64,000 bases of DNA from a virus (lineage: Duplodnaviria; Heunggongvirae; Uroviricota; Caudoviricetes): positions 30,216 through 94,215 of the IMG/VR virus record IMGVR_UViG_3300007072_000340. One strand, 5' to 3'. The notes below the pieces were generated by a model. The model did not search any database. It had not been told where the DNA came from and was given only the letters and a program-made list of their open reading frames with translations. Numbering within the stretch: position 1 is the first letter of the stretch; every line of letters begins with the position of its first letter. A program made the translations under genes and the position numbers. Positions 18,801 through 39,507 of this stretch are shown here, piece by piece.

Positions 18801-18901
18801 CGCCCCGGCACCCAATCCACCTCGATTATCAGAATCGACTCTAGGCCATGCCGTTGAGCCAACCTCGCCAAACCTTGAGGCGAAATGCTACGCATTGGCA
18901 T
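15890..18901 (-). CDS. Large tail protein (distal tail, host-specificity or hub candidate)
   Basis: 1003 aa; last large gene of the tail block, downstream of the fibre paralogues; G-rich loop regions typical of tail-tip proteins. Confidence 0.5.
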   Translation of the reverse strand: MPMRSISPQGLARLAQRHGLESILIIEVDWVPGRAPRSYADRDVDTIPGRIIEVGDLDNVIGVSQNNSSQSLDVTLDDTDGTIKAIFDGHDVHKRDARVYQWFEGLDLSDKFLLFAGKISSPVVWNERDRTVKFTVVSQLEDREIGFSAEEGQFPYLPADLVGKAWPMIFGTVQDCPALQINHAVTGTTLTGVGVIAGSDLYGRFPLYNTGSNEDAGIFASLCQISAQISTLWCAMACWEGVDDAKADDMLDQINQLEEQRGKIVAQAMARKLCAQWQRQKQLADANAKGLGPNPIKVLGGEDFPQDTPLVIDINGAWFWGHFHGQDFFVTRRYSEQLAQQAQDSYNQQTEECPYEDRGGSVIKYDYRQEVPCSCMWADFGTCECRHHGFIIQTGSGSADQKSADPILQQFWADAGATVRIHSGEPITYIVSITPGQVLAVKAYKQFTGERRLIAVPNNLYRVETKTYGSVTAVQIVFDKPLSTITDQGWSDDIYVTFQATAPTYGPNVVDILIHLITTYTDLGYDATSFNYVKEKLGRFPANFPILDRKNTLQVLQEIAYQARCALWISNGKFYIKYLPEEPAAADTITVSDMDADKGVEVALTPTEDLVTKMTVKWRVSWAPGPTDREKDKSEKTMILRHNVTRYGIQEEEYDWYIYNQPDTILKCATFWLIRKSHTWKRIKFQTFLPKLNLETFDCVNLNFAGGYVASAAVKALVEKANYNSADNTVDFECLVPVKAGTMSLYPFFWPANLEASATWPPSEDVLNNDCGGGGIGMGAAGTLPVGITEGIGSGGVVWVGGPNVVFRPQSDWGDRHPADTGYTAQTVINPAVYAELDASPKPRLNLRTYTVRPSDPPALMPLPGGISIDIARTKFVDSSGDNPQAHATLNTLLKGISENGELMLRDDALVASDAVPDGAPLNTLIYVTSDNYVALSSDAYVADDAHPMGAALRDALAIGESEYLCLQSDVWITGGDGEETSFDFRYDDETGVYGAGTAFLQD

Positions 18902-19598
18902 ACTCCCACGTCAGGCCGTGATGCGTCTTACGCCGACCACGTAGACACGCGACCACGTGCGCCGGTTGATGCCCTGCGGTTCTCACAGCGTTGATCGAGT
19001 CAAACTGATGAACGCACACACCAAACAAGTCAAATGCACGCACCGGTGTGAAGAGATGCCGCTTCTTGTCTCGCAGTCGCAGCTTTGTCGCCGCGCTGTG
19101 CTTTCGCCCTATTTGACTTTGGGACATTCTCTGGCGTGTTTCACTCGTGTGGCGGCTGCCACGCTTACCGGCACTGATCTTGGCGCGGATGTCTACGCTG
19201 ACCATCTTGCCTCTGTGAGCGGCACCGATCTTGCGTCGAGTCTCCTCGGCGACCACAAATCCTGACCGACCCTCGCCACCATCGGTAAGATTGCACAGCG
19301 GACCGCGCCGCAAGTCCCGCCGACCGATACAACGGATCAACTGCTTCTCAAACGCAAAAGCCTCTTCTTCCAATAGATGATCCATCACGATCTCAATCTC
19401 GGGCTGAACGCCAGCCACGAGCATCTTCCTCAACGTAGCATAGAAGAATCGGCAGCCACCGGACCGCGGCAAGGACTCCTGGCAGCGCGCCAAGTGAACA
19501 TAGGCTCGCTCGCCGCTGCCCTTGCCAACATAAAATGGAGGCCCATACTCGGGGTCTACGTCTGGTTTGTAGTAGGCGTAGATGTAGAAGTCACTCAC
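18888..19598 (-). CDS. GIY-YIG homing endonuclease with NUMOD3-like repeats
   Basis: FYIYAYYKPD...PFYVGKGSGERAYVH (GIY-YIG); C-terminal SEETRRKIGAAHRGK / SETRQRMSQSQIGRK repeats; inserted between two tail genes. Confidence 0.75.
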   Translation of the reverse strand: MSDFYIYAYYKPDVDPEYGPPFYVGKGSGERAYVHLARCQESLPRSGGCRFFYATLRKMLVAGVQPEIEIVMDHLLEEEAFAFEKQLIRCIGRRDLRRGPLCNLTDGGEGRSGFVVAEETRRKIGAAHRGKMVSVDIRAKISAGKRGSRHTSETRQRMSQSQIGRKHSAATKLRLRDKKRHLFTPVRAFDLFGVCVHQFDSINAVRTAGHQPAHVVACLRGRRKTHHGLTWEYANA

Positions 19599-19993
19599 TG
19601 CTCCACTCCCTCGAACTCGATTTCGACGACCTGCGACTCGCCGCGCGGGAGCGGTGCAATCGCCGGGGCCGCCCGGTCGGACGTGTCAAACTCGAACGGG
19701 TTGTTCACGAAGTTGCCGATCCAGACTCGCCCGTTGTGGTCGGTGACGCGAATCTTGGAGGCGAAGTAGGACCGGAAGAAGGCCCGGACTTCCAGGCCCT
19801 TATTGCGCGTGAGCTTGAAGGTCCACCTCAGCTTCCGCCTGGCGTTGCGGCGCTTGACGTAGGTGTAGCGCGTGCCGTCCATCGCCAGCTTCCGTGTCAC
19901 GGTGGCCAGCAGCCCCTCCTGGTCGCTGAACTGTGGGTTGGGGAGCAGCGAGGTGGTCTGGATCGCCGGGTGGGGTGCCTCAAACGTGAACAT
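19595..19993 (-). CDS. Hypothetical tail-associated protein
   Basis: Start taken at MFTFEAPHP; sits between tail genes. Confidence 0.4.
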   Translation of the reverse strand: MFTFEAPHPAIQTTSLLPNPQFSDQEGLLATVTRKLAMDGTRYTYVKRRNARRKLRWTFKLTRNKGLEVRAFFRSYFASKIRVTDHNGRVWIGNFVNNPFEFDTSDRAAPAIAPLPRGESQVVEIEFEGVEQ

Positions 19994-19995
19994 CG

Positions 19996-22452
19996 CTACG
20001 GCTCCCAGGTGGCGGGTTCGCACTCAAGCTCGAAGCTAATCGTGAAGCCGCTGCGGTCGTCCTGCACGGTGGGCTCGGCCGGGTTCATAATCACGCCCTT
20101 CCAGTAGAATCCCTCCCAATCCACGAACCCCACCTCCAGCCCGAGGTGGCCTTCCACGAAGTCCAGGTACGCCTGGACCTGCTTCCGGCTCAGGCCCTTG
20201 ATGGTGAGCACCTGGGTCTCGACCTTCGGCCAAATGGGATCGGCGAAGACGACCAGCGTGCCGCCCCGCGTCTCACGGCTGATGCGGTTGAATTGCAGCC
20301 GATCCTTGTTGCCGAACTCGGGGTTCCGCAGGTCCACGTGCTCGGTCGGGTGCGACACGGGGTAGACCAGCCGGCAATTGCCGATCCCTGATAAGGGCGT
20401 CGGGCAGGTCGCCGAGGGCGGGGTCGGCGCACCAGGAACGCCCTCCCCAACGAAGGGGTGGTACTGGTGCAGGACATCCGCCGAAACCAGCACGAACGCA
20501 ACGGCCTGCCCGAGGTTCAGCGAGTCGGATACCGCCAACGTGGCCCGGCTGATGACCACCGTGGCCGCATGGGCAAGCGCCAGGGTGCTGGAGACAACCT
20601 TGGAGGCGACGACCTCGGCCGCCTGCACAAGCGAAAGGCTGTCTGCCGCCTGCTGAGCGGTGCGGAAAAACGGCAACTGGGCTACGACGTTGCTGTCGGT
20701 CAGGCTCAGGACATCCGTCGCCTCGCAGGCGATGGCGTCCGCGTGAATCACGACGCCCAGCGCCCGATCCGACAGCGACAGCACGCTCCGCGCTCCATAG
20801 GGCGCGCCATGGACCACCGCCACGTCGGCCCGGTCCTGGAGGCCGACGTAGTATGGAACCAATTGGCCTGTGACGGGATCGAAGTTGTAGTGAAGCTCCT
20901 GGAGGGTGCCGCCCGCCGAGCCGATCTCCACCCCGGAACGGGCCTTGTCCGTCAGGTGCAGCGTATTTGCCGCCGAGACCTGCTTGACGAAGCCGACCGT
21001 GGCCCGGTGCGACAGGCCGATGAGATCGTCGTGGGCCGCCAGGCGGGTATTTGTGGCGTCCGCCGAGTGATTCAGCATCAGCGTGCTCGACGCGCGGCGG
21101 ATGTTGTCCACCAGCGCCTCGTGCGACAGGCTGAGGGTATCCACCACCAGCTTCGCCACGCTGGCGGTTGCCTGGTGCGTCAGCGACAGCGCGGCAACGG
21201 CGCTCCGCGACCGCACTGCCGATTTCACGGCCATGTGCGTCAATGCGAGCGTGTCTGCGCGCCGACGAGTGAAAACCCAGTTGGACTCGGCCTGATGGGT
21301 CAAGGCCAGGTCGTCGTGAGCCAGCCGGATAACCGACGCCTCCGCCACATCGGTCAAGGTCAAGGTGTGCGTACCGACCTTGCACAGGTCGCCGACTGCC
21401 GTTTGGCCCAGTGCCAAGGTATCTGCGGCGGGGCGCAGATAGTCCACCTTGACCGTCGCCTGCTCGACCAGGGCCAGCGTCTCCTGGGCGACGGGCCGGG
21501 CGTAGACCACCAGGACGCTCGCCTCGTGGATCGGCGTCAAGGTGTCGAAGCCGCGCCGCAGCAGGTCCACCTGCGCCAGATGCGTCAGCGACAGCGATTG
21601 CTGGACCGGCTTGATGTGCTCGGCCACCGCCTCGTCCACGACCTCCAGCACGTCGATGCTATGGACCCGTTTCGCATAGGCGACCGTGGCCTCTTCGGTG
21701 ACGCTCAGAGTATCTACGGCCAGCCGGTCGAACACGGTCACTTGAGACGCCTCGTGCGCCACATCCACCATATCCACGACGGGCTTGATTACGTCGCCGG
21801 TCGCCACGTGCGACAACGACAACGTAGTCACCACCGGCCGGATGCAATCTCCTCCGGCCTCGTCGCTCAGCACAAGCGACTGCTCCGCCGAGACCTGGTA
21901 GATTTTCCCGCCCGTGGCCTCGTCGCTCAGCGCCAGGGTATGCTCGGCGACGACCTCGCGGACCAGGTTGCGCTCGGCCAGGTGCGCAATCGCAAGGGTG
22001 CTCGTGCTGCCGACGTTGATTGCGACCTGGGCCGTGTCCGCACTGTGCGTCAAGGCCAAGGTGTGGGCCGCGCTCAGACTATAGACACCCTGCGGGTTGC
22101 CTAGGACTTCAACGACCTGATGCTGGACGCGGGCGCTGCCGCCCGCGGGCGCGTTGCCCGCAATCTCGACGAACTGCTGGATGACGTGCTTAGCGGTCGT
22201 CTTCTCCGCGAGAACGGCCACTGCCTGGCGGGTGACGCGCAACCCGGAGGGCGGCGGGTCGCCAAGCACGGCCACGCACTGGCGGGTGACTTGTGCGGGG
22301 CCGGCGGACGAAAGCACTTCCACGTACTGCCGGCTGACGCGCAACTTCGAGTCGCCCGATGCGAGCACCTCAACGTACTGCCGAGTGACCCGCGCTTTGC
22401 CGTCTCCGGTGCCCAGCACGTCGGCATACTGTCGTGTGACTCGCAGTGCCAT
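19996..22452 (-). CDS. Tail protein with N-terminal tandem RVTRQYVEVL repeats and internal L(S/T)LTH repeats
   Basis: About five N-terminal ~17-aa repeats (LRVTRQYADVLGTGDGKA, RVTRQYVEVLASGDSKL...) and about 20 degenerate ~13-aa repeats; C-terminal ~150 aa globular domain. Confidence 0.6.
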   Translation of the reverse strand: MALRVTRQYADVLGTGDGKARVTRQYVEVLASGDSKLRVSRQYVEVLSSAGPAQVTRQCVAVLGDPPPSGLRVTRQAVAVLAEKTTAKHVIQQFVEIAGNAPAGGSARVQHQVVEVLGNPQGVYSLSAAHTLALTHSADTAQVAINVGSTSTLAIAHLAERNLVREVVAEHTLALSDEATGGKIYQVSAEQSLVLSDEAGGDCIRPVVTTLSLSHVATGDVIKPVVDMVDVAHEASQVTVFDRLAVDTLSVTEEATVAYAKRVHSIDVLEVVDEAVAEHIKPVQQSLSLTHLAQVDLLRRGFDTLTPIHEASVLVVYARPVAQETLALVEQATVKVDYLRPAADTLALGQTAVGDLCKVGTHTLTLTDVAEASVIRLAHDDLALTHQAESNWVFTRRRADTLALTHMAVKSAVRSRSAVAALSLTHQATASVAKLVVDTLSLSHEALVDNIRRASSTLMLNHSADATNTRLAAHDDLIGLSHRATVGFVKQVSAANTLHLTDKARSGVEIGSAGGTLQELHYNFDPVTGQLVPYYVGLQDRADVAVVHGAPYGARSVLSLSDRALGVVIHADAIACEATDVLSLTDSNVVAQLPFFRTAQQAADSLSLVQAAEVVASKVVSSTLALAHAATVVISRATLAVSDSLNLGQAVAFVLVSADVLHQYHPFVGEGVPGAPTPPSATCPTPLSGIGNCRLVYPVSHPTEHVDLRNPEFGNKDRLQFNRISRETRGGTLVVFADPIWPKVETQVLTIKGLSRKQVQAYLDFVEGHLGLEVGFVDWEGFYWKGVIMNPAEPTVQDDRSGFTISFELECEPATWEP

Positions 22453-22453
22453 G

Positions 22454-23509
22454 CTAGCCCACCTTTATGCCGAACTGAGTCGCATCGAAGGCACCGGGCG
22501 TCCAATCGGCCCCCTCCGTGTCGCTCTCCATGACGCGCACGTGGGTCTCGTAGCTGGTGCCGGCAACGTCCCTTGCAGACCCCTCCGAGACTGAGGTTCC
22601 CTCTGCGCGCTGGAGCAGCGTGAAGTTGTTGGCGTCCGTTTCCCGGCAATCGGCGCACAACCCCACCCCCTTCAAGGCCGTGAAGCCAGCGCTGCTGACA
22701 TCGCCGTACTCGAACTGGTCCAGATGGCCGCTGGTGCTCGACTCCACGTAATCGGTGTCGTCGTTGCACGGATTCTCGTCGAGCATCGCGCAATGGTCCG
22801 TGCCGGACTGCGGCGTCCAGTCTTGCTTTCCCGCGACATCCGACGCCGGGCGGCACGTCACCACCTTCACGACCCCGAGGAAGTCGTTGCACTTCGATCC
22901 CGTGGCGTCGCAGACGTAGAAGTCGTCAACATACAGCGTGAAGCCGTTGGTCTGTTCGAGTCTCACCTTGTCGTGGTAGCCGTGCGTCAGATAGCCTGAC
23001 TTCGTGTCAATGCCGGAGAGGCTCAGTTTGGTCGTCCCATTGACCCGCACCTCAACCGTGCCGGCTGTGTCGTGGCAGTAGACCTTAGCCTCAACATAGG
23101 TCCAGCAGCCCCGGCGCAGGTTGGAACCGCTCGTGCAACCCAGAAGCACATCGGTTCCTTCGTTCCGCCAGACCTCGATCTCCCCGGACCAGCCGTTGTA
23201 CCACAGATAGATGCCGAGGGCCGAACCGTCGCGCAGGCCGATAATGTAGCCGTTGTAGCCCGTGTCACTGAGGCAAATGCCCAAGCCGACGATCAACGTC
23301 GGGTCCGTGGTCAAGGCCGGTGTTTCCACGTAATAGGCTGTTGCAAGGCTCCGTCCATTACCAGGGATGCGGGGGTCCCGAACGTAGAGGCTTGAACTGC
23401 CAGTGGCATACTTCCGGCCGACGATCCCAGCCGGCTGGGCGGATGACCCTACCGTGGTGCCGTAACTGTCGAAGCCGTCAATCCACAGAAGAGCCATACC
23501 TACCTCCAC
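22454..23509 (-). CDS. Jelly-roll (ConA/LamG-like) tail fibre / receptor-binding candidate, paralogue 5
   Basis: MALLWIDGFDSYGTT... N-terminus and WTPGAFDATQFGIKVG C-terminus shared with paralogues; variable middle. Confidence 0.5.
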   Translation of the reverse strand: MEVGMALLWIDGFDSYGTTVGSSAQPAGIVGRKYATGSSSLYVRDPRIPGNGRSLATAYYVETPALTTDPTLIVGLGICLSDTGYNGYIIGLRDGSALGIYLWYNGWSGEIEVWRNEGTDVLLGCTSGSNLRRGCWTYVEAKVYCHDTAGTVEVRVNGTTKLSLSGIDTKSGYLTHGYHDKVRLEQTNGFTLYVDDFYVCDATGSKCNDFLGVVKVVTCRPASDVAGKQDWTPQSGTDHCAMLDENPCNDDTDYVESSTSGHLDQFEYGDVSSAGFTALKGVGLCADCRETDANNFTLLQRAEGTSVSEGSARDVAGTSYETHVRVMESDTEGADWTPGAFDATQFGIKVG

Positions 23510-24564
23510 TACGCCAACTTCACGCCAAACTGGGTCGAGTCCAGATTGGATTTTGTCCAGCCTGCGCCTTCGGGATCGGCTGCCATCAGACGCACGAGCG
23601 TCCGAAACCCCGTGCCCCCGATCTCGCGGGCCTCACCGTCCGATTGGGTCGTCAGCTTCGCCGGCATCTTGATGCTGAAGGGCTGGGCGTCCGTTTCAGC
23701 GCATTCCGTGCAAATGTTGAGGCCGCGGATTGTGCCAATATCGGCAGGTGAGTCTGCGTACTCGAAAAGGTCGGTGTTCCCGGACGCGCCCGTCTCGATA
23801 TAGTCCGTGTTGTCGTTGGCCGGGTTTTCGTCCACCATCGCGTAATGATCGCCGCCAGATTGCGGTGTCCAGTCCTTCGCGCCGGCCACATCGGCGCTGG
23901 GCCGCAGTGCCACCACCTTGACTGGACCAAGAAAATCGTTGGCTGAACCGCCGGTCCCGTCGCATACGTAGAAGTCGTCGTAAAGCGGGCCGTAGTTTGG
24001 CCCAAGACTGGCCATTCCCGCCCGGTCGTAGTACGCCAGCGTGTCGCGCTTCGTGTCCACATTGGTAAGGCTTAGCTTCGTCTTTCCGTTGACCCGGACT
24101 TCAACCGCCCCTGCTGCATCGTGGCAGTAGACCTTCAGTTCGACGTAGTTCCAACGGTGATTGGCAATCCGTGCCCCCGACGTTGTGCCAAGCAGCACCG
24201 CTGTCCCGCCGTCACGGTACACCGATAGTTCGCCTGTCCGCGCCGTAAGGTAAAGGTAAATGCCTCGGGTCGCGCCGTTATAGAGGCCCATCAGGGTAGC
24301 CGATACTCCCGTGGCAATGTCGCCGTTGTACTGCCGGTAGGCAAAGCCGACGATCAATGTCGGGTCGGTGGTCAACGACGGGGTGATGAACGTTCCCGTG
24401 TAGGAGCCTTGAAGCGAGAAGCCGTTGTTTGGAATGCGGGGCGTATCACTGCGGAATGGGTCGTAACACGGCATGTACCGCCGCTCCATGCACCGCGACG
24501 GTGAATGGAGCGAACCGGCAACGCTGCCGTAGTTGTCGAAGCCATCAAACCAGAGCAGAGCCAT
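23509..24564 (-). CDS. Jelly-roll tail fibre / RBP candidate, paralogue 4
   Basis: MALLWFDGFDNYGSV...WTKSNLDSTQFGVKLA. Confidence 0.5.
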   Translation of the reverse strand: MALLWFDGFDNYGSVAGSLHSPSRCMERRYMPCYDPFRSDTPRIPNNGFSLQGSYTGTFITPSLTTDPTLIVGFAYRQYNGDIATGVSATLMGLYNGATRGIYLYLTARTGELSVYRDGGTAVLLGTTSGARIANHRWNYVELKVYCHDAAGAVEVRVNGKTKLSLTNVDTKRDTLAYYDRAGMASLGPNYGPLYDDFYVCDGTGGSANDFLGPVKVVALRPSADVAGAKDWTPQSGGDHYAMVDENPANDNTDYIETGASGNTDLFEYADSPADIGTIRGLNICTECAETDAQPFSIKMPAKLTTQSDGEAREIGGTGFRTLVRLMAADPEGAGWTKSNLDSTQFGVKLA

Positions 24565-24573
24565 AGCCCACCT

Positions 24574-25605
24574 CTAGCCTACCTTCACGCCGAACTGGTA
24601 CGAGTTGAGGGCCGCCGCAGTCCAGGCGTCGGAGCCGCCGGGCTGCGCCTCCATGATTCGCACGACCTCGCTGTAATCGACGCCGACCGTCTGGGCTGAA
24701 TCCTCCGATTCGTAGCCGCCGCCGGACTTCGCCAACGTCTTCAAGTCGGAACACTGTGCATCCGTTGCACGGGCCAGCGTGACCACTTGAACGGCATGGA
24801 TGGTGTCGCCGATGTCCGTTGCGTCCGTGTAGTGCCACAACTCCTTCCGGTCAGCCACAGCGCTCTCCACGTAGTCGCTGTCGTCGTTGGCGAGCGGGAA
24901 GTCATCGACATACGTGTGGTGCTCCCCGCCACCGCTGGCATCCCAGTGGGCCGCGTCTCCTGCCGCATTCGGCGTGATCGTGGTAATCTTCACCGGGCCT
25001 AGGAAATCGTTGTTTCGGGACCCGGTGGAGTCACACACATAGAAGTTGTCGATCGTGGAGCCGCGAGTGAAGTACAGGGTGTTGTGGTAATTGATCGACG
25101 CATCCGCCTGGGTGTCGCCGGTGAACGTGTAGATGGTTCTGCCGCCGTAGCGAACCTCGATCGTCCCGGCCGTGTCGTCACAGTACACCTTCAGTTCGAT
25201 CCAATGCCAGCGATTGATCTGAAAGGCGTTTCCCGTGCTCGTCGTGCCAAGGAGTGTCCCACCGCGGTACACACGTAACTCGCGGGTCGAACCTGATACG
25301 TAATACTCCAGGCTGACGCCGACCGTGTTGTCGGAGCACATGCGGACCAGCCAGTTGGTGGAAGCGCTGTTGGGCCTGAACGCGAAGCCGACGATCAACG
25401 TGCGGTCGGTCGTCAACGGGGGCGTCCCACAGAAGTTGTAAGTGGCGTACATATTGACGGCGCTGCCGCCACACTGGCCAGCCGCCCAAGGGTAGCTGTT
25501 GTTAACAACGTCAGCGCCGGTCCAGTCGTACCGCCGCGCCACGTAGGCGTTCAAGTAGCCGGACGATCCGCCTCCCTCAAAGCCGTCCATCCAGAGAAGC
25601 GCCAT
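24574..25605 (-). CDS. Jelly-roll tail fibre / RBP candidate, paralogue 3
   Basis: MALLWMDGFEGGGSS...WTAAALNSYQFGVKVG. Confidence 0.5.
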   Translation of the reverse strand: MALLWMDGFEGGGSSGYLNAYVARRYDWTGADVVNNSYPWAAGQCGGSAVNMYATYNFCGTPPLTTDRTLIVGFAFRPNSASTNWLVRMCSDNTVGVSLEYYVSGSTRELRVYRGGTLLGTTSTGNAFQINRWHWIELKVYCDDTAGTIEVRYGGRTIYTFTGDTQADASINYHNTLYFTRGSTIDNFYVCDSTGSRNNDFLGPVKITTITPNAAGDAAHWDASGGGEHHTYVDDFPLANDDSDYVESAVADRKELWHYTDATDIGDTIHAVQVVTLARATDAQCSDLKTLAKSGGGYESEDSAQTVGVDYSEVVRIMEAQPGGSDAWTAAALNSYQFGVKVG

Positions 25606-25616
25606 GCTGCACCCCG

Positions 25617-26648
25617 TTAGCCCAAAAGCACGCCGAATTGAGCCAAACCGATGTTGTCCAGCGTCCAGGCGTTGTTGCTCGGGTCTTTCTCCATGACGCG
25701 GGTCTTCGTCAGAAAGCCGTCATTGTCCACCGCCACCGCGCTGCCGTCGCTTTGGACCCCGGACAGCTTGCACGGCTGAAGCAGGTTAAACGTGGTCGCC
25801 TGCGTCCGCCGCGTTTCCGAGTTGATTTGGACGCCGATCACGTCGTTCTCCATAGCCGTGGCCGGAATGTCCTCGTAGGCATACAGGTCCAGGTTCCCGG
25901 AACCGGCTGTAGCGACGTAGGTGCCGTTGTCGTCCATGACTGGCTCTTCGACGCAATCCCAATTGTTGCCCGCCGAGGGTGTCCACTGCGCCGCATCGCC
26001 GGCCCCGTTCGGGAAGATCGTGACAACGTGCTTGACGCCGAGAAAGGTGTTCGCCGGCGCGCTGCCGCTGCCGTCCAGGCAGTAGAGATCGTCGAACGTC
26101 GGGTTCTCGCCCCACACGTCCTGGATGCGGAACGTCGTGTGATAGTTGTTCGAGCCCGCCTTCGTGTTCACGCTGGTGGCGCTCAGCACGTTGACGGTAT
26201 CGACACGGACCTCGTAGCTGCCCGTGGTGGCGTTGCACACCACCTTGAATTCGACGTAGTACCAAGTGTTCGTCTGAAGACCGAGGCCCGTTGTAACGCC
26301 GAGTTGCGTGTCCGCCCGGTAGACCGCGAGGTTCCCGCCCGAAACCCACCGCAGGTTCACGCCTCGCGTGGCCCCGTCGTAGAACGTCAGAAACTCGTGG
26401 TTCAGGCCGTTCAGCGTCTTGTACGCCAGTCCAACAAATAGCGTGGCATTGGTCGTCAGATCAGGCGCTTTGAACGCACAGGTGTCCAGGACAAACTTGA
26501 GGGCATAGCCTGCCCATCGGCCCGTCACCACCTGAAAGCCATTCTCGGACACAACCGTGTATTTACGCCCGTAGACGCCGCTCGGCGACGGCGCGCTGCC
26601 GACCGTCGTACCGAATCCCTCGAAGCCTTCGATCCAGAGCAATGCCAT
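25617..26648 (-). CDS. Jelly-roll tail fibre / RBP candidate, paralogue 2
   Basis: MALLWIEGFEGFGTT...WTLDNIGLAQFGVLLG. Confidence 0.5.
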   Translation of the reverse strand: MALLWIEGFEGFGTTVGSAPSPSGVYGRKYTVVSENGFQVVTGRWAGYALKFVLDTCAFKAPDLTTNATLFVGLAYKTLNGLNHEFLTFYDGATRGVNLRWVSGGNLAVYRADTQLGVTTGLGLQTNTWYYVEFKVVCNATTGSYEVRVDTVNVLSATSVNTKAGSNNYHTTFRIQDVWGENPTFDDLYCLDGSGSAPANTFLGVKHVVTIFPNGAGDAAQWTPSAGNNWDCVEEPVMDDNGTYVATAGSGNLDLYAYEDIPATAMENDVIGVQINSETRRTQATTFNLLQPCKLSGVQSDGSAVAVDNDGFLTKTRVMEKDPSNNAWTLDNIGLAQFGVLLG

Positions 26649-26659
26649 GTTTCACCTCG

Positions 26660-27697
26660 CTACGCCAGTTTGACGCCGAACTGGGCCGCGTTCAGTTCGT
26701 CCAGCGTCCAGGGACTCCCCGTGTCGGGATTCGTTTCAAGGAGCCGGGTGATGTACCGGCCGGTGTTGGTTGACGTGACGAGCGTGGCGATTCCGTCGTT
26801 CTGCGTGGCGGACTTGACGGGCTGCTTGACGTTCCACGGTACGCCATCCACCGTCGAAAGCACCTGGGTGTTGACCTGCACCCCCACAATCCCGCCCGTC
26901 AGGTCGGGGACGCTCTCGTAGTTGTACAGGTCCGCGTTGTCGGTCACGTCCGTGGAGACATAATCGCTGCTGCTCGGCGGGACCTCATCGACGCAGGCGT
27001 AGTTGCTACCGGCCGAAGGGGTCCACTGGGTCAAGTCCCCGGCTGCATTCGGCTTGATGGCGACTACTTGCTTGCGGCCAATGAAATCGTTGTTCGCCGC
27101 ACCCGTGCCATCGAGAATGTAGAGATCGTCGAACCGCAGCACGCAGGATGAATTGATGCCGCGAAACTGAACCTTGCAGTGGTAATCATCGCTTCCACCC
27201 TTGGTGTTGATGCCGGTGAGGTTCAGCTTCTCTTGCTCATTGACGCGAATCGTCACGGTGCCGTTTGTATTGTGGCAGTAGACCTTCAGCTCGATATGAC
27301 ACCAGACGCCGGCCTGAATGTTGGCCCCGGAAGTCGTGCCCAGGAGATTCCCTTCGCCCCGGTAAACGCTGATTTCCCCCGTGGACCGGAGACAAAAGTG
27401 TATGGACCTGGTGGTGCGGTCCCAGAGGGCAACATTTGACAGGTAGTAGACGGCATCTGCCAACTGTGCCGTCTTGAAATTGAATCCGACGATCAACGTC
27501 GGGTCAGTGGTCAGGACGCCGGGCGTGGTGAAGTAGATGTCACTGTCGTACAACTCCACGGCGAGCCCGCTCCAGCGGCCTGCGCGCAGCAAGTAATAGC
27601 TTGACCAACTGGACATGCCGTACTTGCCCGTCATGGGCGTGTAAGCGGAAGCGTTAAGCGTGTTGTACGCCTCGAAGCCGTCGATCCAGAGCAACAT
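26660..27697 (-). CDS. Jelly-roll tail fibre / RBP candidate, paralogue 1
   Basis: MLLWIDGFEAYNTL...WTLDELNAAQFGVKLA. Confidence 0.5.
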   Translation of the reverse strand: MLLWIDGFEAYNTLNASAYTPMTGKYGMSSWSSYYLLRAGRWSGLAVELYDSDIYFTTPGVLTTDPTLIVGFNFKTAQLADAVYYLSNVALWDRTTRSIHFCLRSTGEISVYRGEGNLLGTTSGANIQAGVWCHIELKVYCHNTNGTVTIRVNEQEKLNLTGINTKGGSDDYHCKVQFRGINSSCVLRFDDLYILDGTGAANNDFIGRKQVVAIKPNAAGDLTQWTPSAGSNYACVDEVPPSSSDYVSTDVTDNADLYNYESVPDLTGGIVGVQVNTQVLSTVDGVPWNVKQPVKSATQNDGIATLVTSTNTGRYITRLLETNPDTGSPWTLDELNAAQFGVKLA

Positions 27698-27773: not shown

Positions 27774-28355
27774 TTAGGCGTTGACGGTGTAGGTCACCTT
27801 CAACTGGTCGCCGTTGAGCACCGAGACGGTGCCGCTGGAGAACTGGGCAGCCGCCCAGAGGGTGCCGCCGCCGGCCGCGTCGTTTTTCGTCGAGGGGGCC
27901 GAGCCGCCACCGACCACGCCCAAGCCGTAGACGCTCCCCGAACCGTTGATGTTGAAGACCACGGGGCTGGAGTTGGTGATCGACTGGTTGGCCGCCGCGC
28001 CCTCGGTCCACTCCTGACGGGTGGCCTCGCTGTAGGCGGTGAACTCGTCCCAGCCGTTGGTCCCATTGATCTGGGCGTAGGTGTCGCCGGCCGCCAGCGT
28101 GGGAGAACCGGCCCCGTCCACCAACAGGATGTACCACGTCCCGATGGCCGTCACGCCGTGGAACATCACGTCCAAGAGCTTGTTCTTACCCTCGTTCGTG
28201 ATGGCGTTGCGGATGTCGTACTTGCCGATCAACTGGCCGCCGCGCCAGTGCTCCACCTGGAAGCGGCCACGGGCGTGAATTTGATCGGAAACCTTGGCGG
28301 TGGGGCGAACCAACTGGCAAGCCGCCTCTTGCTGGACATGGATGGTGTCGTTCAT
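27774..28355 (-). CDS. Tail protein (hypothetical)
   Basis: Start at MNDTIHVQQ; sits between tape measure and fibre paralogues. Confidence 0.45.
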   Translation of the reverse strand: MNDTIHVQQEAACQLVRPTAKVSDQIHARGRFQVEHWRGGQLIGKYDIRNAITNEGKNKLLDVMFHGVTAIGTWYILLVDGAGSPTLAAGDTYAQINGTNGWDEFTAYSEATRQEWTEGAAANQSITNSSPVVFNINGSGSVYGLGVVGGGSAPSTKNDAAGGGTLWAAAQFSSGTVSVLNGDQLKVTYTVNA

Positions 28356-28380
28356 GGATGTTCCTCGATGAAAAAAGGGG

Positions 28381-31300
28381 TTACAGGGTTGACGTGCCAC
28401 GCCGCAGTTCCCTTCGCAACTCGGCGGCGATGGACCTTGCCGTCTGGCGGCTTGATCCGCCGCCGTTCACAGTCACGTTGATGTCGCCGATGTTGGTGAT
28501 GCTGCCTCCTTCGCTCCGGTAAGCCGGCCGCACACCGGCGTTGATGGCGGTCAGTTCCGAGGCGAAGCGCCGCGCTGAGGCGGCGTTGATGACCACTTCC
28601 CCAGGCGAGAGCATCGCCGGAATCACGTCCGTGCCCTGGGGAGGCCCGCCGAAGGCCAGAAAACTCCAGACCTTCCTCCCCTGCGCCGCCGTCACCGCGG
28701 GCGGCGGCTCGACCGCCCAGGAGGCCGCCGCCAGGTCCCACATCGCGGAGGCCGCCGCTTGAATCTCGCCGGCCAGGCCCGCCATGCTCGGGATCGCGCT
28801 CAGCGCCGCCTGGGCCTGCTGCGCGCCCTCGCCCATCTCGGTCGCCGCCTGGGGATTCAGTTGGTCGATGATCCCCTTCAGCCGGTCGGCCTCCTGCCGC
28901 GCCTTCTCCAATTCAGCTCGGATGTCTCGGCGCTGACCCTCGGGCGTCCGCTGGATCGTCTTCATCCGCTCCGCCTCATCCGCCAGGGACTTCGCCCAGC
29001 CCAGTTGGCTGGTGATGAAATCCTTGTCGAACTGGGTCAGGGTCGGACTCTTGAGCAGTTCCGTGGCCTTCTTCTGTAGGTCCAGGAACTGGTCCATCCC
29101 GAATCCCTTGGGAGCCTGGGACAGCTTTTTGAACTGGTCGAACAGCTCGCCCAGGGCCTTCGCGTCCTTCTGGATGTCCCCGCCGCCGAAGATCGTGCTG
29201 ATGCCTTTCTTCGTGGCCTGGGCGAGGAACGTCCGCCAGTCTTCCATCGCGGCCCTGTAGACCTCCAGATTGGCCCCCAAGGCACCTTGAGCCGCCCTTT
29301 GGGCAATGGTGGACTGCGAGATCGCGTCCTGCTCGCGCTGCAACCGGGCTGCCAGATCGACCTGCTTCTGGTACTCCCTGGTGACGATCTCCGTCTGCTC
29401 GGCGGGGGTCTTGCCGGCGAGCATTTCCGGCGTGATAGTCCCGCCCGGCTTGACGAAGGGCTTCAGGGCGACCGAGACGGCGCCCAAGCCGTTTTCGATC
29501 TGGCTTCGCAGGGCATCAATCGTCTGGGGGGCGGCAAAGAGCTTCTGGACTTCCAGGTCCGAGATGCCGCCCTCCAGGGCCGCATTCACGCGCCGCCTGA
29601 GCGTGTCAAACTTGAGCATCTCGCCCAAGTCGATCTGGGTGGTGCCCGCCGTCCAGAGGCGCTGGAACTCGTCCATCTTCCTCTTCAAGTCTTCCGACTT
29701 GGCGGCCGACTTGAGCGGGTCGATGGGGCCTTTCTTGTCGAAGAGGTCAAGGTCTTCGAGGATGCCCTTCATCAAGACCTTCATGCGGTCCACGCGGACC
29801 TGCTCCTGGGCCGCCGCCTGGGCCGCCCGTGCGGCGCGGTTCTCGCTGTTCGTCTGGAATTGCCTTTCCGCGTCGATCTGTTGTCGAATGATCGACAGCG
29901 ACACCCGCTGGGCGTCGTCCAGAAGCCACTCGTTCTTCGTCGAGGAGGCAATCGACTCGGCCTCCTGGGCGTGGGCCATCGCCCGCTGGAAGATGGCCTG
30001 CGCCGCCTGCTGTTGGTCCGGGGTCTCGGCCCTGGCCAGTTGCGCGGCCGCCTCCCGCGCCAGGGAGAGGGCGTGCCGGCTATACTGCTCCTCCAGGTAG
30101 TAGGCGTTCTTGTACCCCAGCAACCGATTCTTCAATAGCAGGTCGTCATAGCGGCCTTGCAGGTCCGCCTGGCGCTTCATGGAATCGACGGCCGCCTGGT
30201 TGGCGGCGTTGGCGGCCGAACGGAACTGCTGGACGATCTTCTCGCGGGTCGAGATCATCTGCTGCATTGTGGTTCGCGACGAGGTGATTAGCTCTTCGTT
30301 GCTCTTCCGCGCTAGATCGACCTGCGCGTTGTACGCCTGCCGCACCACGGCCATGTACTGCTCCAGACGGCGGCTGGCCTCTTCATAGACCTTCTTGTTG
30401 GCGGCGATCCGCTCCTCGCTCGCCTTCTCTTCCGCCGCCAGCCGCTCTTGGACGGACTTGCGGAAGTTCTCGTTGGCGTTGGTGAGCACCGAGGCCAACC
30501 GTTGGTCCAGGAAGTCGGCACCCCAGACGACCATCGCAATCGGGGCCAGCACGTTGTTGAAAGCGTTGCCCAGCAGGCCGGCGTTGGCAGCCGCCAGCTT
30601 GGCGCGGAGCGAGAAGGCCATTAGCGCGCCGCCGGCAACGGCCAGCGGTTCGGCCAGCGTCGTCAAGGCGGTGGCGATGCCCTTCAAGCTGGCGACCAGC
30701 CCATCCGCCCCGCCCACCGCCTTGAGCAAGCCGCTGAGGAACTTGACCAGTTCCGGGCCGACCTCCGTGGCCAAGGCGACCTTGATCCTGTTCAGTTCTT
30801 TCGTGTACTGCTCGGCGTCGCTGGAGGTGAACGTCTTGAACGCCTCGTTCAAGGTGTCCCGCGAAGTCTTGCCCATCACGGCCAGGGCTTGCTCAGCCTG
30901 CTGGGCACCGGAGCCAGTCAAGCGGAGTTCCGCGTTCAAGGCGCGGATGTTACGGAACAAAGTGGCCGTCCCTGCCACATCTTCATTCTGGCTGTGGCGC
31001 AGCTTCTCAAAGGCCCCCTGGAGGCCCTCTGCACGAATGAGCTGCTGACCCGTCTCGTAGCCCAAGGCTCGCAACTCTTCCCGCATGTCCGTGGAGGGCT
31101 TGATGAGCGCAGCCAAGGCAGCCCGGAAGCCCGTGGCGGCCTCCGGGACGCGCTGCGAGCCGATCGTCAGGGCGATGATCGACGAGTTGACCTCATCCAG
31201 GCTGACCCCCAACTCGCTGGCGATTGGGACGATGCGGCCAATCACCGGCGTCAGGTCGGCACCGCGGGTGCGGCCCAACTCAATCGTCTTGAAGAACTTG

Positions 31301-38229: not shown

Positions 38230-39507
38230 CTAGCTCAAGCGTGACAACTTCAAGGCGTCCGAGTCGCGCAAGAAAGGCTTGAGCAAGCGCCACGCGACAG
38301 AACTCGGCACCATATTGACGATGTGTTCGATGGGCAGTTGCGACCGCTCGTAGCTCGTCTTCACCGCCCCGTAGCCCATTGCGCTGACGGCCAGGTTCTC
38401 CAACTCCAGTTCGGGGTCTTTGCCGTCCAGCAGAGCGTGGGCGATCTCGTACTCGGCGATGCGGATGGCCTCGGGAACCTCCATGTCGGTCCCGCGCGGG
38501 AACTCAAGCGGCTGGCTGGCCTCGGCAGCTCTGATCTGCTCTTGGGTGGCGGATGGGTTCACCTGCAAGAGCGTATGAACGCTGTGCTTGTAGCCCTTGT
38601 AACTCAAGGCGTCGATGATCTGCGTGGCTGCCCAAAGGGCCTTCGGCCGATCGGCCGGATCGGCGTTAGACCAAGCGCTCTCATGGAGGCGTGAGGCGAA
38701 ATAAGAGTCAGCTTGGACCAGCGTGCCGTAGTAGATCATGCCCAGCCCGTAGTAAGGTGCGTCCGCCAGGAGTTCGAGAAGCAGTGTCGTGACTCGAAGC
38801 GCTGGAGGACCGAACTCTCCCAGTACCTCGCCCTGAATCTGCGTGCTTTGGACGCGGTTGGTGTTGCCTCGGCCCAATACCTCCGCGCCCAGGGCCGTAA
38901 CATGGAGCGTAGGGACGAACCGCTCGCCCAGAATCTCGCACTGGACCTGAGTCGCTCGAACGGCAGCAGTCTCAGTGGGACCCAGTATCTCGGCAGCAAC
39001 CGCCGTGACCCGAATCCCTGGAACGCTTTCTTCGCCAAGGACTTCGCACTGGACTTGGGTAACCCGGACACTAGGGGCCTCGGCGGACCCCAACACCTCC
39101 GAGCCTAGCGCGGTGATCCGAAGCGAGGGGACAGTCGGCTCACCGAGGATTTCACACTGGACTTGGGTTGTGCGAAGGCCGTCGTTGTCTCCGTTGCCCA
39201 CCACCTCCGAATCGAGCCGGGTGACCCGAATCGTTGGAACGACCTGTTCGCCGAGGATTTCGCACTGAACCTGGGTCGTCTGGACGCCATCGGTAGTGCC
39301 ATGCCCCAACATTTCGGCACGAAACGTCGTGACTACGCCCGCCGAAAGGACGTACTCACCAAGTACCTCGCATTGGACCCGCGTTACGTGAGTACGATTG
39401 GTTGAACCACGCCCCAACACCTCGGCGGCTACGCGAGTGGCATTCAGCCGGGTCGTAGCGCCACAGCCGAGGACTTCCAGCGCGGCACGAGTGGCGCGAA
39501 GGCTCAT
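38230..39507 (-). CDS. Repeat protein: ~10 tandem VRVTQVQCEVLGE-type repeats fused to a gp6/DnaT_2-like head-tail connector domain
   Basis: N-terminal ~18-aa periodic repeats; C-terminal YYGTLVQADSYFASRLHESAWSNADPADRPKALWAATQIIDALSYKGYK...EFPRG recalled as the gp6-like head-tail adaptor family. Confidence 0.55.
   Translation of the reverse strand: MSLRATRAALEVLGCGATTRLNATRVAAEVLGRGSTNRTHVTRVQCEVLGEYVLSAGVVTTFRAEMLGHGTTDGVQTTQVQCEILGEQVVPTIRVTRLDSEVVGNGDNDGLRTTQVQCEILGEPTVPSLRITALGSEVLGSAEAPSVRVTQVQCEVLGEESVPGIRVTAVAAEILGPTETAAVRATQVQCEILGERFVPTLHVTALGAEVLGRGNTNRVQSTQIQGEVLGEFGPPALRVTTLLLELLADAPYYGLGMIYYGTLVQADSYFASRLHESAWSNADPADRPKALWAATQIIDALSYKGYKHSVHTLLQVNPSATQEQIRAAEASQPLEFPRGTDMEVPEAIRIAEYEIAHALLDGKDPELELENLAVSAMGYGAVKTSYERSQLPIEHIVNMVPSSVAWRLLKPFLRDSDALKLSRLS

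Follow-up and report, generated by a model that had tools for sequence, protein, structure and literature searches.

What does a tailed phage do with five tandem paralogues of a protein of about 345 residues in its tail module, plus a sixth copy among its head genes? We addressed this question in a window of 64,000 nucleotides (positions 30,216 to 94,215 of IMG/VR record IMGVR_UViG_3300007072_000340), using open reading frames, profile searches, structure prediction, and comparison with related loci.

Six paralogues with a concanavalin A-like predicted fold

The ORFs of paralogues A to E lie back to back on the minus strand with 9–11 nt between neighbours, and paralogue F is encoded separately (Table 1). 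All six are 30–50% identical to one another over their full lengths (pairwise BLASTP, E 1e-40 to 1e-117), and an HMM scan found exactly these six family copies in the window. They match PHROG 2448 at profile positions ~2–333 of 335 (E 4.7e-33 to 5.7e-44). This phage protein family is very large, with about 25,600 cluster representatives (50% identity clusters), but is unnamed and annotated as "unknown function". It lacks a Pfam or NCBIfam model as well as a solved homologue, and no proteomic or structural report placing a member in a virion was found in the literature. The D type is the commonest in metagenomes (83 of the 120 best matches). Gene callers also give 347 aa for paralogue A on an identical contig.

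The first-pass annotation had described the five tandem paralogues, the sixth copy and their shared termini, and all of these were borne out by the ORFs, the BLASTP identities and the PHROG 2448 matches. The N-terminal motif is M(A)LLW(I/F/M)(D/E)GF(D/E) and the C-terminal motif W-T-x7-QFG(V/I)K(V/L)(G/A), with small departures in E (start MLLW), D (end QFGVLLG), and F (MALRW...QIGIEHV).

The predicted structure of paralogue B contains a two-sheet jelly roll of ~180–200 residues that superposes on known concanavalin A-like members. By prediction, each paralogue has two beta-rich parts: a concanavalin A-like jelly roll with variable loops (~residues 15–205), and a conserved module composed of an N-terminal strand (MALLWIDGFE), a C-terminal beta domain, and a C-terminal strand (QFGVKxG). 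The earlier impression of a concanavalin/LamG-like protein therefore stands for the concanavalin A-like fold of the B model but not for the LamG family, as no Laminin_G Pfam model matched any of the six at E up to 1. Likeness to LamG-type domains, e.g., collagen IX NC4 (2uur), is one of generic fold only.

Conservation peaks at residues 1–10, 141–160, 201–220, and 341–350, and variability at loops 31–40, 51–60, 81–90, 101–110, and 181–195. The divergent middles pointed out previously are thus a matter of jelly-roll loops between two conserved termini. The exposed residues with the highest conservation are W138, E142, K144, D196, D197, and Y199, which could form a catalytic site instead of a docking site.

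Table 1. Features of the paralogue arrays and their neighbours in the 64,000-nt window.
Feature	Coordinates	Strand	Description
Paralogue A, slot 5	22454..23497	-	347 aa from conserved ATG; ORF extendable to GTG at 23509
Paralogue B, slot 4	23509..24564	-	351 aa; copy whose structure was modelled
Paralogue C, slot 3	24574..25605	-	343 aa; ORF and PHROG 2448
Paralogue D, slot 2	25617..26648	-	343 aa; ORF and PHROG 2448
Paralogue E, slot 1	26660..27697	-	345 aa; PHROG 2448 match E 7.9e-41
Paralogue F, neck-associated	39504..40556	-	350 aa; PHROG 2448
818-aa tail-tip fibre	19996..22452	-	N-terminal tag region, long DTLSLTH-type repeat shaft, C-terminal anchor domain
Proposed docking tag for A–E	22081..22443	-	seven 17–18-aa repeats R-V-T-R-Q-x-x-E-V-L-G, residues 4–124 of 818-aa protein
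C-terminal anchor domain of 818-aa protein	19999..20385	-	~residues 690–818
132-aa distal tail protein, lambda gpM/Dit type	19595..19993	-	gpM/Dit tube fold
1003-aa probable tail hub / central tip protein	15890..18901	-	downstream of gpM-like gene; assigned by synteny
208-aa protein, PHROG 8123 (unknown function)	27774..28400	-	E 5e-15; between tape measure gene and array
Tape measure protein, 1254 aa	28381..32145	-	PF10145 E 4.8e-23 and several tape-measure PHROGs; start of tail-tip module
Ad1 head-to-tail adaptor, 425 aa	38230..39507	-	~240-residue N-terminal repeat extension
Proposed docking tag for F	38797..39498	-	~12–13 repeats of 17–18 aa, Ad1 residues 4–237

Coupling of the arrays to repeat-bearing genes

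PHROG 2448 arrays are genetically coupled to repeat-bearing genes, which is a new finding. In 28 non-redundant arrays (the window and loci L005–L032), a gene encoding a protein with 1–13 RVTRQxxEVLG repeats at its start comes 0–20 nt after the last family gene. Conversely, among 1,736 ORFs scanned, all 17 with at least two strict repeat matches adjoin a family gene on its downstream side (hypergeometric p 4e-32).

In the window, the stop codon of A lies 1 nt ahead of the start of the 818-aa fibre gene, in whose product repeat-HMM matches begin at residues 4, 21, 38, 54, 72, 89, and 108. Equivalents of this protein follow the array in L005, L006, L007, L009, L011–L013, L016–L018, L020, L027, and L031. 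Its C-terminal domain is probably a second gpM/Dit-like tube-fold domain: an HMM of the 132-aa gpM-like protein matches the corresponding domains in L007 (E 3e-6) and L013 (E 6e-4), and within the window the match is marginal (BLASTP, E 0.056). The 132-aa protein itself has the tail-tube-like beta sandwich plus helix of the gpM/Dit type and is encoded downstream of the tape measure gene. In L009 and L013 the gpM-like protein is itself repeat-tagged and has its own paralogue gene upstream. Two further neighbours are less well defined. The 1003-aa protein is the probable tail hub or central tip protein, with equivalents of 944–1043 aa at the same position in relatives and a weak match to PHROG 2048 'tail protein' (E 3e-4). 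A protein of 183–221 aa occupies the place of the 208-aa gene in all related tail loci; the 208-aa protein weakly matches PDB 26la_U 'Structural protein' (E 1.4e-3) and, as a constant neighbour of the array, is a candidate only for a part of the module. The pairing of the arrays with a downstream RVTRQxxEVLG-repeat protein had been missed in the first-pass annotation.

The sixth copy shows the same coupling at another place. Its stop codon overlaps the Ad1 start codon by 4 nt, and the gene order is portal (40569–42380), F, repeat-bearing Ad1, scaffold. F had been placed between portal and scaffold genes; the portal gene does adjoin it, but the Ad1 gene intervenes before the scaffold. Ad1 belongs to the adaptor family of SPP1 gp15 and HK97 gp6, as its residues 259–417 match PHROG 477 'head-tail adaptor Ad1' (E 1.3e-12); Pfam DnaT_2 scored 26.7 bits, just under its cut-off of 27. 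The Ad1 repeats have the form R-(A/V)-T-(R/Q)-(V/L/A)-x-x-E-(V/I)-L-G and were parsed by eye, with 12 repeat-HMM matches. They are undetectable as DNA tandem repeats and are therefore old, protein-level repeats. Every orthologue of F at 72–97% identity has a repeat-tagged Ad1 next to it downstream, and those at 59–62% (L009, L013) lie in the tail-tip module ahead of the tagged gpM-like protein. From this gene context, F would be a component of the neck, not of the capsid.

Across loci the tag is constant and the anchor is swapped. The anchor can be a gpM-like domain of the 818 type, the gpM-like protein in its own right (L009, L013), Ad1 (the window, L019, L024, L026, L038–L046), or, in L022, L023, L025, and L030, a fibre-tip domain in place of a recognisable virion anchor, so that in general either end of the tagged proteins may be the proximal one. 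A multi-copy array can also precede Ad1 (L019, four copies).

Paralogue and repeat types vary together. F-type paralogues, with the C-terminus Q-A/I-G-I-E, always occur with Q-less repeats (R-A-T-R-L/V) on an Ad1 or gpM-like anchor, and QFGxK-type paralogues go with RVTRQ repeats whatever the anchor. Two repeat types alternate in some distant loci that have two paralogues (L050, L052, L053), and downstream of more distant members at ≤31% identity (L048, L055) the encoded protein has another kind of N-terminus. In a natural fusion (P0349, 820 aa), found on six contigs with identical synteny, a paralogue, one repeat, a fibre, and an 818-type anchor form a single chain. The same pairing is seen in two distant cultured phages, in Chi, where gp32–35 precede gp36 with its six N-terminal VGEAL-type repeats, and in Brevundimonas phage Delta, where gp31–32 precede gp33 with repeats at its C-terminus. 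The fusion, the covariation, and the pairing in Chi and Delta together support physical docking of paralogue on repeat.

Comparison with related phages, which had been suggested as a check, showed that copy number varies from 1 to 5 per array. The five slots are shared by position across several phages: orthologues of E (slot 1) are 49–58% identical in L005, L006, L011, L012, and L017, and slot identities are 56–67% for D, 50–61% for C, and 58–62% for A. The slots therefore seem non-redundant, and the idea of a recent, local tandem diversification was dropped. A simple model of one head per repeat fails, since repeat and paralogue numbers are unequal (5 paralogues with 7 repeats, 1 with 12, 3 with 2, 4 with 8). 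The two numbers correlate with rho 0.70, without correction for phylogeny.

Proposed arrangement and competing explanations

With modest confidence, we favour a model in which the paralogues are interchangeable glycan-binding, possibly glycan-cleaving, heads docked on the repeat tags of tail-tip and neck fibres. The data show paralogy, family membership, a predicted fold, gene coupling, a natural fusion, covariation of paralogue and repeat types, and the folds of the anchors; docking as such, incorporation into the virion, the glycan ligand, and the stoichiometry are inferred. The paralogues would dock non-covalently on strings of 17–18-residue beta-strand repeats, which would be the free ends of virion proteins anchored at their opposite ends. 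The window phage would have two such tagged proteins, the 818-aa tail-tip fibre with its gpM/Dit-like C-terminus and the Ad1 adaptor. Its virion would then carry five different lectin-like heads (A–E) on tail-tip fibres and a sixth (F) on neck fibres, and the heads may bind, or possibly cleave, host surface polysaccharide at first contact. A multivalent host-range apparatus had already been suggested, and multivalent host recognition is the best reading because the genes are true paralogues, their variation is focused on loops, and their copy number ranges from 1 to 5.

Attachment to the fibre could be the same if the paralogues were virion-borne depolymerases, jelly-roll lyases of PL14, PL20, or PL36 type that each act on a different host glycan, and not simple binders. 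We consider this somewhat unlikely. Polar residues on core strands (E142, K144, Y199, R28, Y30, R43) are near-invariant family-wide, and 'polysaccharide lyase' is the annotation given to a Pseudanabaena phage Pam4 homologue, but such public annotations are automated. The Pfam matches are below gathering scores: Polysacc_lyase_14 (PF21294) for F only (20.1 vs 27 bits, E 5.7e-4) and Polysacc_lyase (PF14099) for B only (12.1 vs 29.9 bits, E 0.17), with no match to either for A, C, D, and E. The known lyases PL20 (2zzj), PL14 (5gmt; Chlorella virus vAL-1, 3a0n), and PL36 (6kcv) share 10–14% sequence identity with the paralogues and lack their extra C-terminal beta domain and conserved termini. The paralogues might instead be integral, BppU-like baseplate or neck adaptors, a proximal socket for the repeat ends of fibres and not a distal head. 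In TP901-1 the BppU gene precedes the BppL gene, an adaptor-before-fibre order resembling that seen here, and the tagged fibres of L022, L023, L025, and L030, with a fibre-tip-like C-terminus and no ring anchor, suggest that the repeat end is the attached one. This arrangement is unlikely, in our view: the C-terminal domains of Ad1, gpM-like, and 818-type proteins are ring-forming virion components, which leaves the repeat end free, the fusion places the paralogue at the far N-terminal end with the anchor at the C-terminus, and variable loops on a lectin fold better suit exposed ligand binding.

Gene-order coupling may also reflect a role in assembly instead of a lasting complex. Fibre chaperones are typically coupled to fibre genes, as with T4 gp57A/gp38 and the lambda and Mu Tfa proteins, and the tight coupling here, together with the lack of proteomic reports in the literature, would fit chaperones or folding templates missing from the finished virion. 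We consider this quite improbable. Five non-redundant 345-aa chaperones at conserved positions would be excessive for one fibre, hypervariable loops on a lectin fold of two domains are unlike chaperones, and the permanent fusion on six contigs implies that the domain stays on the product. Decoration of head and tail, as proposed in the first-pass annotation, with F on the capsid and the five tail copies on the tube or tail, is hardly credible. F does lie inside the head-gene block, and lectin-like and Ig-like decorations occur on other phages. Yet F overlaps the start of the tagged neck adaptor gene, its L009 and L013 orthologues sit in the tail-tip module, an array of several copies also precedes Ad1 in L019, and no link to capsid or tube protein genes was seen, nor anything, genetic or structural, that ties F to the major capsid protein.

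Relation to known receptor-recognition systems

The arrangement of docked heads that we favour has partial counterparts. The small adhesin gp38 of T2/T6/S16-type phages is encoded next to the fibre gene, binds the free end of the fibre non-covalently, and carries receptor specificity. Its likeness to the paralogues is one of proposed mode of action only, with hypervariable loops on a conserved frame in both. No gp38 fibre-tip adhesin family in Pfam, PHROG, or NCBIfam matched the paralogues, which have no sequence relationship to gp38 and a different fold (concanavalin A-like jelly roll plus beta domain). Moreover, the paralogue gene lies upstream of the fibre gene, the N-terminal end of the fibre is used, docking would be via a tag of repeated strands, as many as five non-redundant paralogues would serve one fibre, and the neck is used as well.

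In lactococcal and Lactobacillus siphophages (Tuc2009 BppA, the 'evolved' Dit CBMs of phage J-1, PDB 5ly8, and neck passage structures), CBMs are mostly carried in cis in Dit, Tal, and neck proteins, whereas the paralogue module is encoded as a polypeptide of its own, with no more than the repeat tag on the ring protein. No sequence similarity between these accessory CBMs and the PHROG 2448 family was detectable. The CBA120 TSP1–4, G7C gp63.1/gp66, and Klebsiella phiK64-1 depolymerases are beta-helix tailspikes that dock on one another via N-terminal adaptor domains. On our model, such branched systems share with the paralogues tandem receptor-recognition genes, conserved terminal docking parts, divergent functional parts, and a wider glycan range, but the paralogues are small jelly-roll proteins, proposed to dock on a short array of repeats borne by a fibre or adaptor. 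With the mycobacteriophage Douge gp23 'baseplate upper protein' (8zdo) and the TM4 gp23 RBD (9n6a), the fold alone is common; gene context and attachment mode differ.

Chi (Casjensviridae) provides true homologues, full-length in gp32–34 and in the C-terminal half of gp35 (HMM E 1e-7 to 1e-31). They are ~26% identical to the window proteins and are encoded after a J-like tail protein, not the tape measure gene. The C-terminal part of gp36 is also different. Chi gp32–gp36 are all annotated as hypothetical, and no reported function was found for them in the literature. The best lead to the mechanism is the pairing of array and repeat protein, which is conserved across this very large, unnamed family of phage proteins, a family also present in the model phage Chi.

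Genes of the array and their surroundings

The first-pass annotation had described five tandem paralogous genes in the tail module and a sixth copy elsewhere, and this was borne out by the ORF listing, a MAFFT alignment, pairwise BLASTP, and a family HMM that found exactly six copies in the window. The five array genes lie back-to-back, with gaps of 9-11 nt between neighbors. Identity to paralogue A is 37-51% in the alignment, where 35 columns are invariant, including those of an N-terminal M-x-L-x-W-x-x-G-F and a C-terminal W-T...Q-x-G, and BLASTP among the six gives 30-50% identity (E 1e-40 to 1e-117). Judged from these sequence comparisons, the similarity is homology, with chance excluded. 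The sixth copy, paralogue F, had been placed between the portal and scaffold genes. The portal side of that placement stands, with 12 nt between the portal gene and F; the scaffold gene is not adjacent, because the stop of F overlaps by 4 nt the start of a 425-aa gene whose product carries, in residues 259-417, the head-to-tail adaptor Ad1 (PHROG 477, E 1.3e-12).

Positions of the features discussed, in nucleotides of the window
Feature	Position	Strand	Remark
Tape measure gene	28381-32145	minus	first of tail-tip block
208-aa protein	27774-28400	minus	between tape measure and paralogue E
Paralogue E	26660-27697	minus	ORF listing
Paralogue D	25617-26648	minus	ORF listing
Paralogue C	24574-25605	minus	ORF listing
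Paralogue B	23509-24564	minus	ORF listing
Paralogue A	22454-23497	minus	ORF listing; from conserved ATG
818-aa repeat protein	19996-22452	minus	after paralogue A
Second repeat class of 818-aa protein	20386-22080	minus	residues ~125-690
132-aa protein	19595-19993	minus	after 818-aa protein
236-aa ORF	18888-19598	minus	GIY-YIG-like N-terminus
1003-aa protein	15890-18901	minus	last of tail-tip block
Paralogue F	39504-40556	minus	ORF listing
MazZ-like gene	11170-11601	plus	PF18909, E 1e-19
Serine recombinase gene	60471-61271	minus	near window end
Serine recombinase gene	62738-63481	minus	near window end

The whole window is phage-like, with genes for terminase, portal, scaffold, capsid, and tape measure (PF10145) as well as for a DUF5906 primase, an exonuclease, ParB, a methylase, and HNH endonucleases. 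Its capsid protein is at most 34% identical to those of cultured phages, to which the phage has only a distant relationship. On the minus strand, the tail-tip block runs from the tape measure through the 208-aa protein, E-D-C-B-A, the 818-aa and 132-aa proteins, and a GIY-YIG-like ORF to the 1003-aa protein. The 208-aa protein (PHROG 8123) sits where Dit is normally encoded and is constant between tape measure and array in relatives (183-221 aa there); its one weak PDB match is an unnamed 'Structural protein' (26la_U, E 1.4e-3). The 236-aa ORF between the gpM-like (132-aa) gene and that of the probable hub (1003-aa) protein (N-terminus FYIYAYY...YVGKGSGERAYVH, with faint NUMOD3 matches from the gene caller) is absent at that position in the related loci L005 and L006 and probably represents a homing endonuclease gene inserted into the tail module.

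Elsewhere in the window, a gene for a MazZ-like dATP/dGTP diphosphohydrolase adjoins those for an RNase_T exonuclease and the DUF5906 primase, a trio also present in relatives that may point to modification of the DNA or manipulation of the nucleotide pool; among the window ORFs scanned, no PurZ was seen to accompany this lead toward a Z-genome. Two serine recombinase genes, with Resolvase and Recombinase domains, suggest that the phage is temperate or integrated; the contig from which the window comes measures 174 kb. An identical tail module is carried by a second contig (L002 1-5555; ENA contig NODE_1268, 57.7 kb), where a shorter tape measure (1177 aa) abuts pyruvate:ferredoxin oxidoreductase and ferredoxin genes, a junction that is either prophage/host or a chimeric assembly.

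Slot-by-slot comparison with three related loci (L005, L006, and L011) gave 49-67% identity for the same window slot vs. 29-48% for other slots. These same-slot best matches indicate that the five-gene array is old, ordered, and non-redundant, and a recent tandem duplication was rejected since the slots are positionally orthologous. Synonymous sites are saturated, the orthologous proteins being only about 50-67% identical.

Fold and conservation of the PHROG 2448 family

Over their whole length, all six paralogues match PHROG 2448 ('unknown function'), which, as far as sequence goes, is their only membership. No Pfam family scored above threshold for any of them, NCBIfam holds no model for the family, and PDB sequence searches with profiles A1 and A2 and with the 818-aa, 132-aa, and hub proteins returned nothing meaningful, including no solved family homologue. 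Searching 1.84 billion cluster representatives with a profile gave 25,653 family members with E ≤ 1e-3, or about 25,600 representatives clustered at 50% identity; 9,516 had E ≤ 1e-30. Cultured carriers include Chi-like Casjensviridae, phages of Proteus, Providencia, Brevundimonas, Sphingomonas, Mesorhizobium, and Pseudanabaena, and several jumbo phages, and almost all of their homologues are annotated 'hypothetical protein'.

Paralogue B was modeled with AlphaFold2 from an alignment of 65 sequences; the confident model (pLDDT 92.5, pTM 0.91) is all-beta and in two parts. Its fold-level matches include carbohydrate-binding modules (CBMs) of sialidase and arabinanase, botulinum toxin Hc-N, the J-1 Dit CBM2, Douge gp23, and TM4 gp23. 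The concanavalin/LamG-like character that the first-pass annotation had sensed was thus right as to fold, and none of the six proteins has a LamG match. By itself, the predicted fold does not tell sugar binding from sugar cutting.

Column entropy placed the most conserved residues at 1-10, 141-160, 201-220, 251-260, and 341-350 and the most variable segments, mostly in the N domain, at 31-40, 51-60, 81-90, 101-110, 181-195, and 271-280. In gp35 of the cultured phage Chi, the N-terminal strand (MPVVWHCGF) and C-terminal domain are kept and the middle is different. This composition suggests that N-strand and C-domain form a constant module and that the jelly roll is exchangeable cargo. At HMM positions ~142 and ~317, orthologues of slots 3 and 5 in L006 (8613-9998 and 11063-12376; 461 and 437 aa) carry insertions of ~100 residues, which shows that these proteins tolerate extra domains; the metagenomic proteins P0041, P0052, and P0098 are similarly enlarged. 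Two others, P0344 (999 aa) and P0365 (991 aa), hold five tandem ConA-like N domains in one chain and lack the C-terminal domain, a cis version of the five-gene array.

A repeat tag downstream of the family genes

The 818-aa protein starts with seven 17-18-residue repeats (RVTRQYVEVLG-x6), followed by ~25 'DTLSLTHxA' repeats and a C-terminal domain of ~120 residues. Units of the second class are ~18-22 aa long, center on D-T-L-S/A-L-T/S-H/D-x-A, and form the fibre shaft, which is kept in relatives at variable length (proteins of 390-835 aa). Ad1 starts with 12-13 repeats resembling those of the 818-aa protein. In the DNA sequence itself, Tandem Repeats Finder detected none of these protein repeats.

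Related loci were gathered by exact-protein look-ups and two viral-contig scans and were scanned with the family HMM and a repeat HMM; a scan of genome contigs with a single protein gave only two loci, both distant. In 28 non-redundant arrays (the window and L005-L032), a gene with 1-13 N-terminal repeats, whose product typically starts M-A-L-R-V-T/S-R-Q-x-x-E-V/A-L, comes 0-20 nt after the last family gene. At least two strict repeat matches occurred in 17 of 1,736 non-family ORFs, and all 17 lie directly downstream of a family gene (hypergeometric p 4e-32, uncorrected for kinship of the loci). The tag is constant and the rest of the protein varies among four types: the 818-type C-terminal domain; the 132-aa-type protein itself (220 aa in L009, 276 aa in L013); Ad1 (the window, L019 after four copies, L024, L026, and L038-L046); and a fibre ending '...TLDIEIELPILL' (L022, L023, L025, and L030). 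Behind that last fibre in L022 (13312-20052), L023 (12793-16491), and L025 (13250-17704), several genes start M-x-x-R-K-P-L-V-I-x-x-G-Q, the short ones (~160 aa) also sharing a similar C-terminal motif; the series, with members of up to 2246 aa, resembles successive segments of a fibre or a set of alternative fibres. Among cultured phages, Chi has four family members (gp32-gp35) followed by gp36, which begins with six 'x-x-V-G-E-A-L' repeats, and Brevundimonas phage Delta has gp31 and gp32 followed by gp33 ('minor tail protein'), whose repeats (FTHAALEVLRS, RVSTLSVEVLRT) are C-terminal.

The 132-aa protein is highly conserved (the best 120 of 385 homologues share 69-95% identity) and has an AlphaFold model with a tail-tube/Dit fold (pLDDT 80) that matches the Dits of Douge, 80alpha, and p2 and several baseplate tube initiators. 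Its HMM also matches 818-type C-terminal domains in L007 (E 3e-6) and L013 (E 6e-4), from which we infer that the 818-aa protein is a fibre whose anchor is a second domain of gpM/Dit type; within the window this similarity is marginal. Adaptors of the Ad1 type (SPP1 gp15, HK97 gp6) make up the ring below the portal. In both the 818-aa protein and Ad1, the repeat-bearing N-terminus would point away from the particle. Two Ad1 genes, one plain (170-179 aa) and one tagged (188-265 aa), flank the paralogue gene or genes in L019 (3504-9024), L024 (9478-11820), and L026 (9470-11613), two versions that would have to share one dodecameric ring; the window has the tagged Ad1 only.

The metagenomic protein P0349 (820 aa) is a single chain in which a short linker connects a complete family domain to one repeat (ARVTQMLIEAYT), after which come fibre repeats and a C-terminal domain of the 818 type. 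This fusion is present on six contigs from several samples in the usual synteny (tape measure, 185-aa protein, fusion, 128-aa protein, 1043-aa protein). Family type and repeat type also covary. F-type paralogues (C-terminus Q-A/I-G-I-E) always precede R-A-T-R-L/V-x-x-E-V-L-G repeats, in which a hydrophobic residue replaces the tail-type Q, both with an Ad1 anchor (the window, L038-L046) and with a gpM-like anchor (L009, L013), and QFGxK-type paralogues pair with RVTRQ repeats even on an Ad1 anchor (L019, L024, L026). Three distant loci with two paralogues each (L050, L052, L053) have a tag of two alternating repeat types. Together with positional orthology, fusion and covariation point to a physical association of paralogues and tag. 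In fibre-type arrays, repeat number correlates with paralogue number (Spearman rho 0.70); the counts are unequal (5 paralogues with 7 repeats, 4 with 8, 3 with 2, 1 with 12), so a model of one head per repeat was rejected. The repeats may form an oligomeric beta stalk with limited docking sites.

A docking model, its alternatives, and its implications

We lean, with modest confidence, toward a model in which the paralogues would be modular heads that dock through the conserved N-strand/C-domain module onto repeat tags, A-E on the tag of the tail-tip fibre and F on that of the neck adaptor. The virion would then carry rosettes of lectin-like or lyase-like domains at tail tip and neck, which would recognize host surface polysaccharide reversibly or degrade it locally. 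The analysis establishes homology, a predicted fold, the coupling of the genes, the fusion, the covariation, and the folds of the anchors; docking and its stoichiometry, presence in the virion, and a glycan ligand are presumptive elements of this model. The observation made in the first-pass annotation is confirmed, and its interpretation of the array as a multivalent host-range apparatus or as decoration of head and tail is supported in part.

The same architecture with catalytic lyases as heads we consider improbable; the six proteins did not reach Pfam thresholds for the PL14 and PL20 lyase families. Somewhat less probable still is that the paralogues are proximal sockets and not distal heads, a reading favored by the tagged fibre without a ring anchor in four loci. 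That they act as transient assembly chaperones we regard as quite unlikely, and a role as capsid or tube decoration as scarcely credible. A broader version of the docking model, which we put forward tentatively as a possibility, is that tags and PHROG 2448 constitute a portable tag-and-socket system: whichever virion protein forms a ring, be it neck adaptor, gpM/Dit, or fibre, might be given a short beta-strand repeat strip that would recruit a defined set of interchangeable lectin/lyase heads, single paralogues reading single repeat variants.

The proposed mode of working resembles that of separately encoded fibre adhesins (gp38 of T2/T6/S16-type phages), of accessory carbohydrate-binding modules in the baseplates and neck passage structures of lactococcal and Lactobacillus phages, and of branched multi-tailspike systems; the six proteins have no match to gp38. 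They resemble modular receptor-binding attachments, with a specific, testable assembly rule. In a non-exhaustive search of the published literature, including that on Chi, YSD1, PIN1/2, and Chi-like phages, no function or virion position was found for any family member, Chi gp32-36 included, and an earlier description is possible. New here are a huge unnamed family, the repeat tag and its shared use by ring proteins of both neck and tail, and the ordered five-slot array.

The family is among the larger phage protein families without a name, and it reaches from jumbo phages to the long-studied flagellotropic phage Chi, where gp32-36 stay hypothetical. The pairing with a repeat tag is a testable assembly rule that accounts for the same protein type in head-gene and tail-gene blocks, and host-recognition modules of metagenomic phages can be annotated by a simple genomic signature, a family gene with, directly behind it, a gene whose product starts MALRVTRQ... 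If true, the tag-and-socket system might be reprogrammable for phage engineering, where the tag could hang chosen binding modules on particles if docking holds, and it would be a general, so far undescribed assembly route for multivalent host-recognition organelles in tens of thousands of phages, Chi included.
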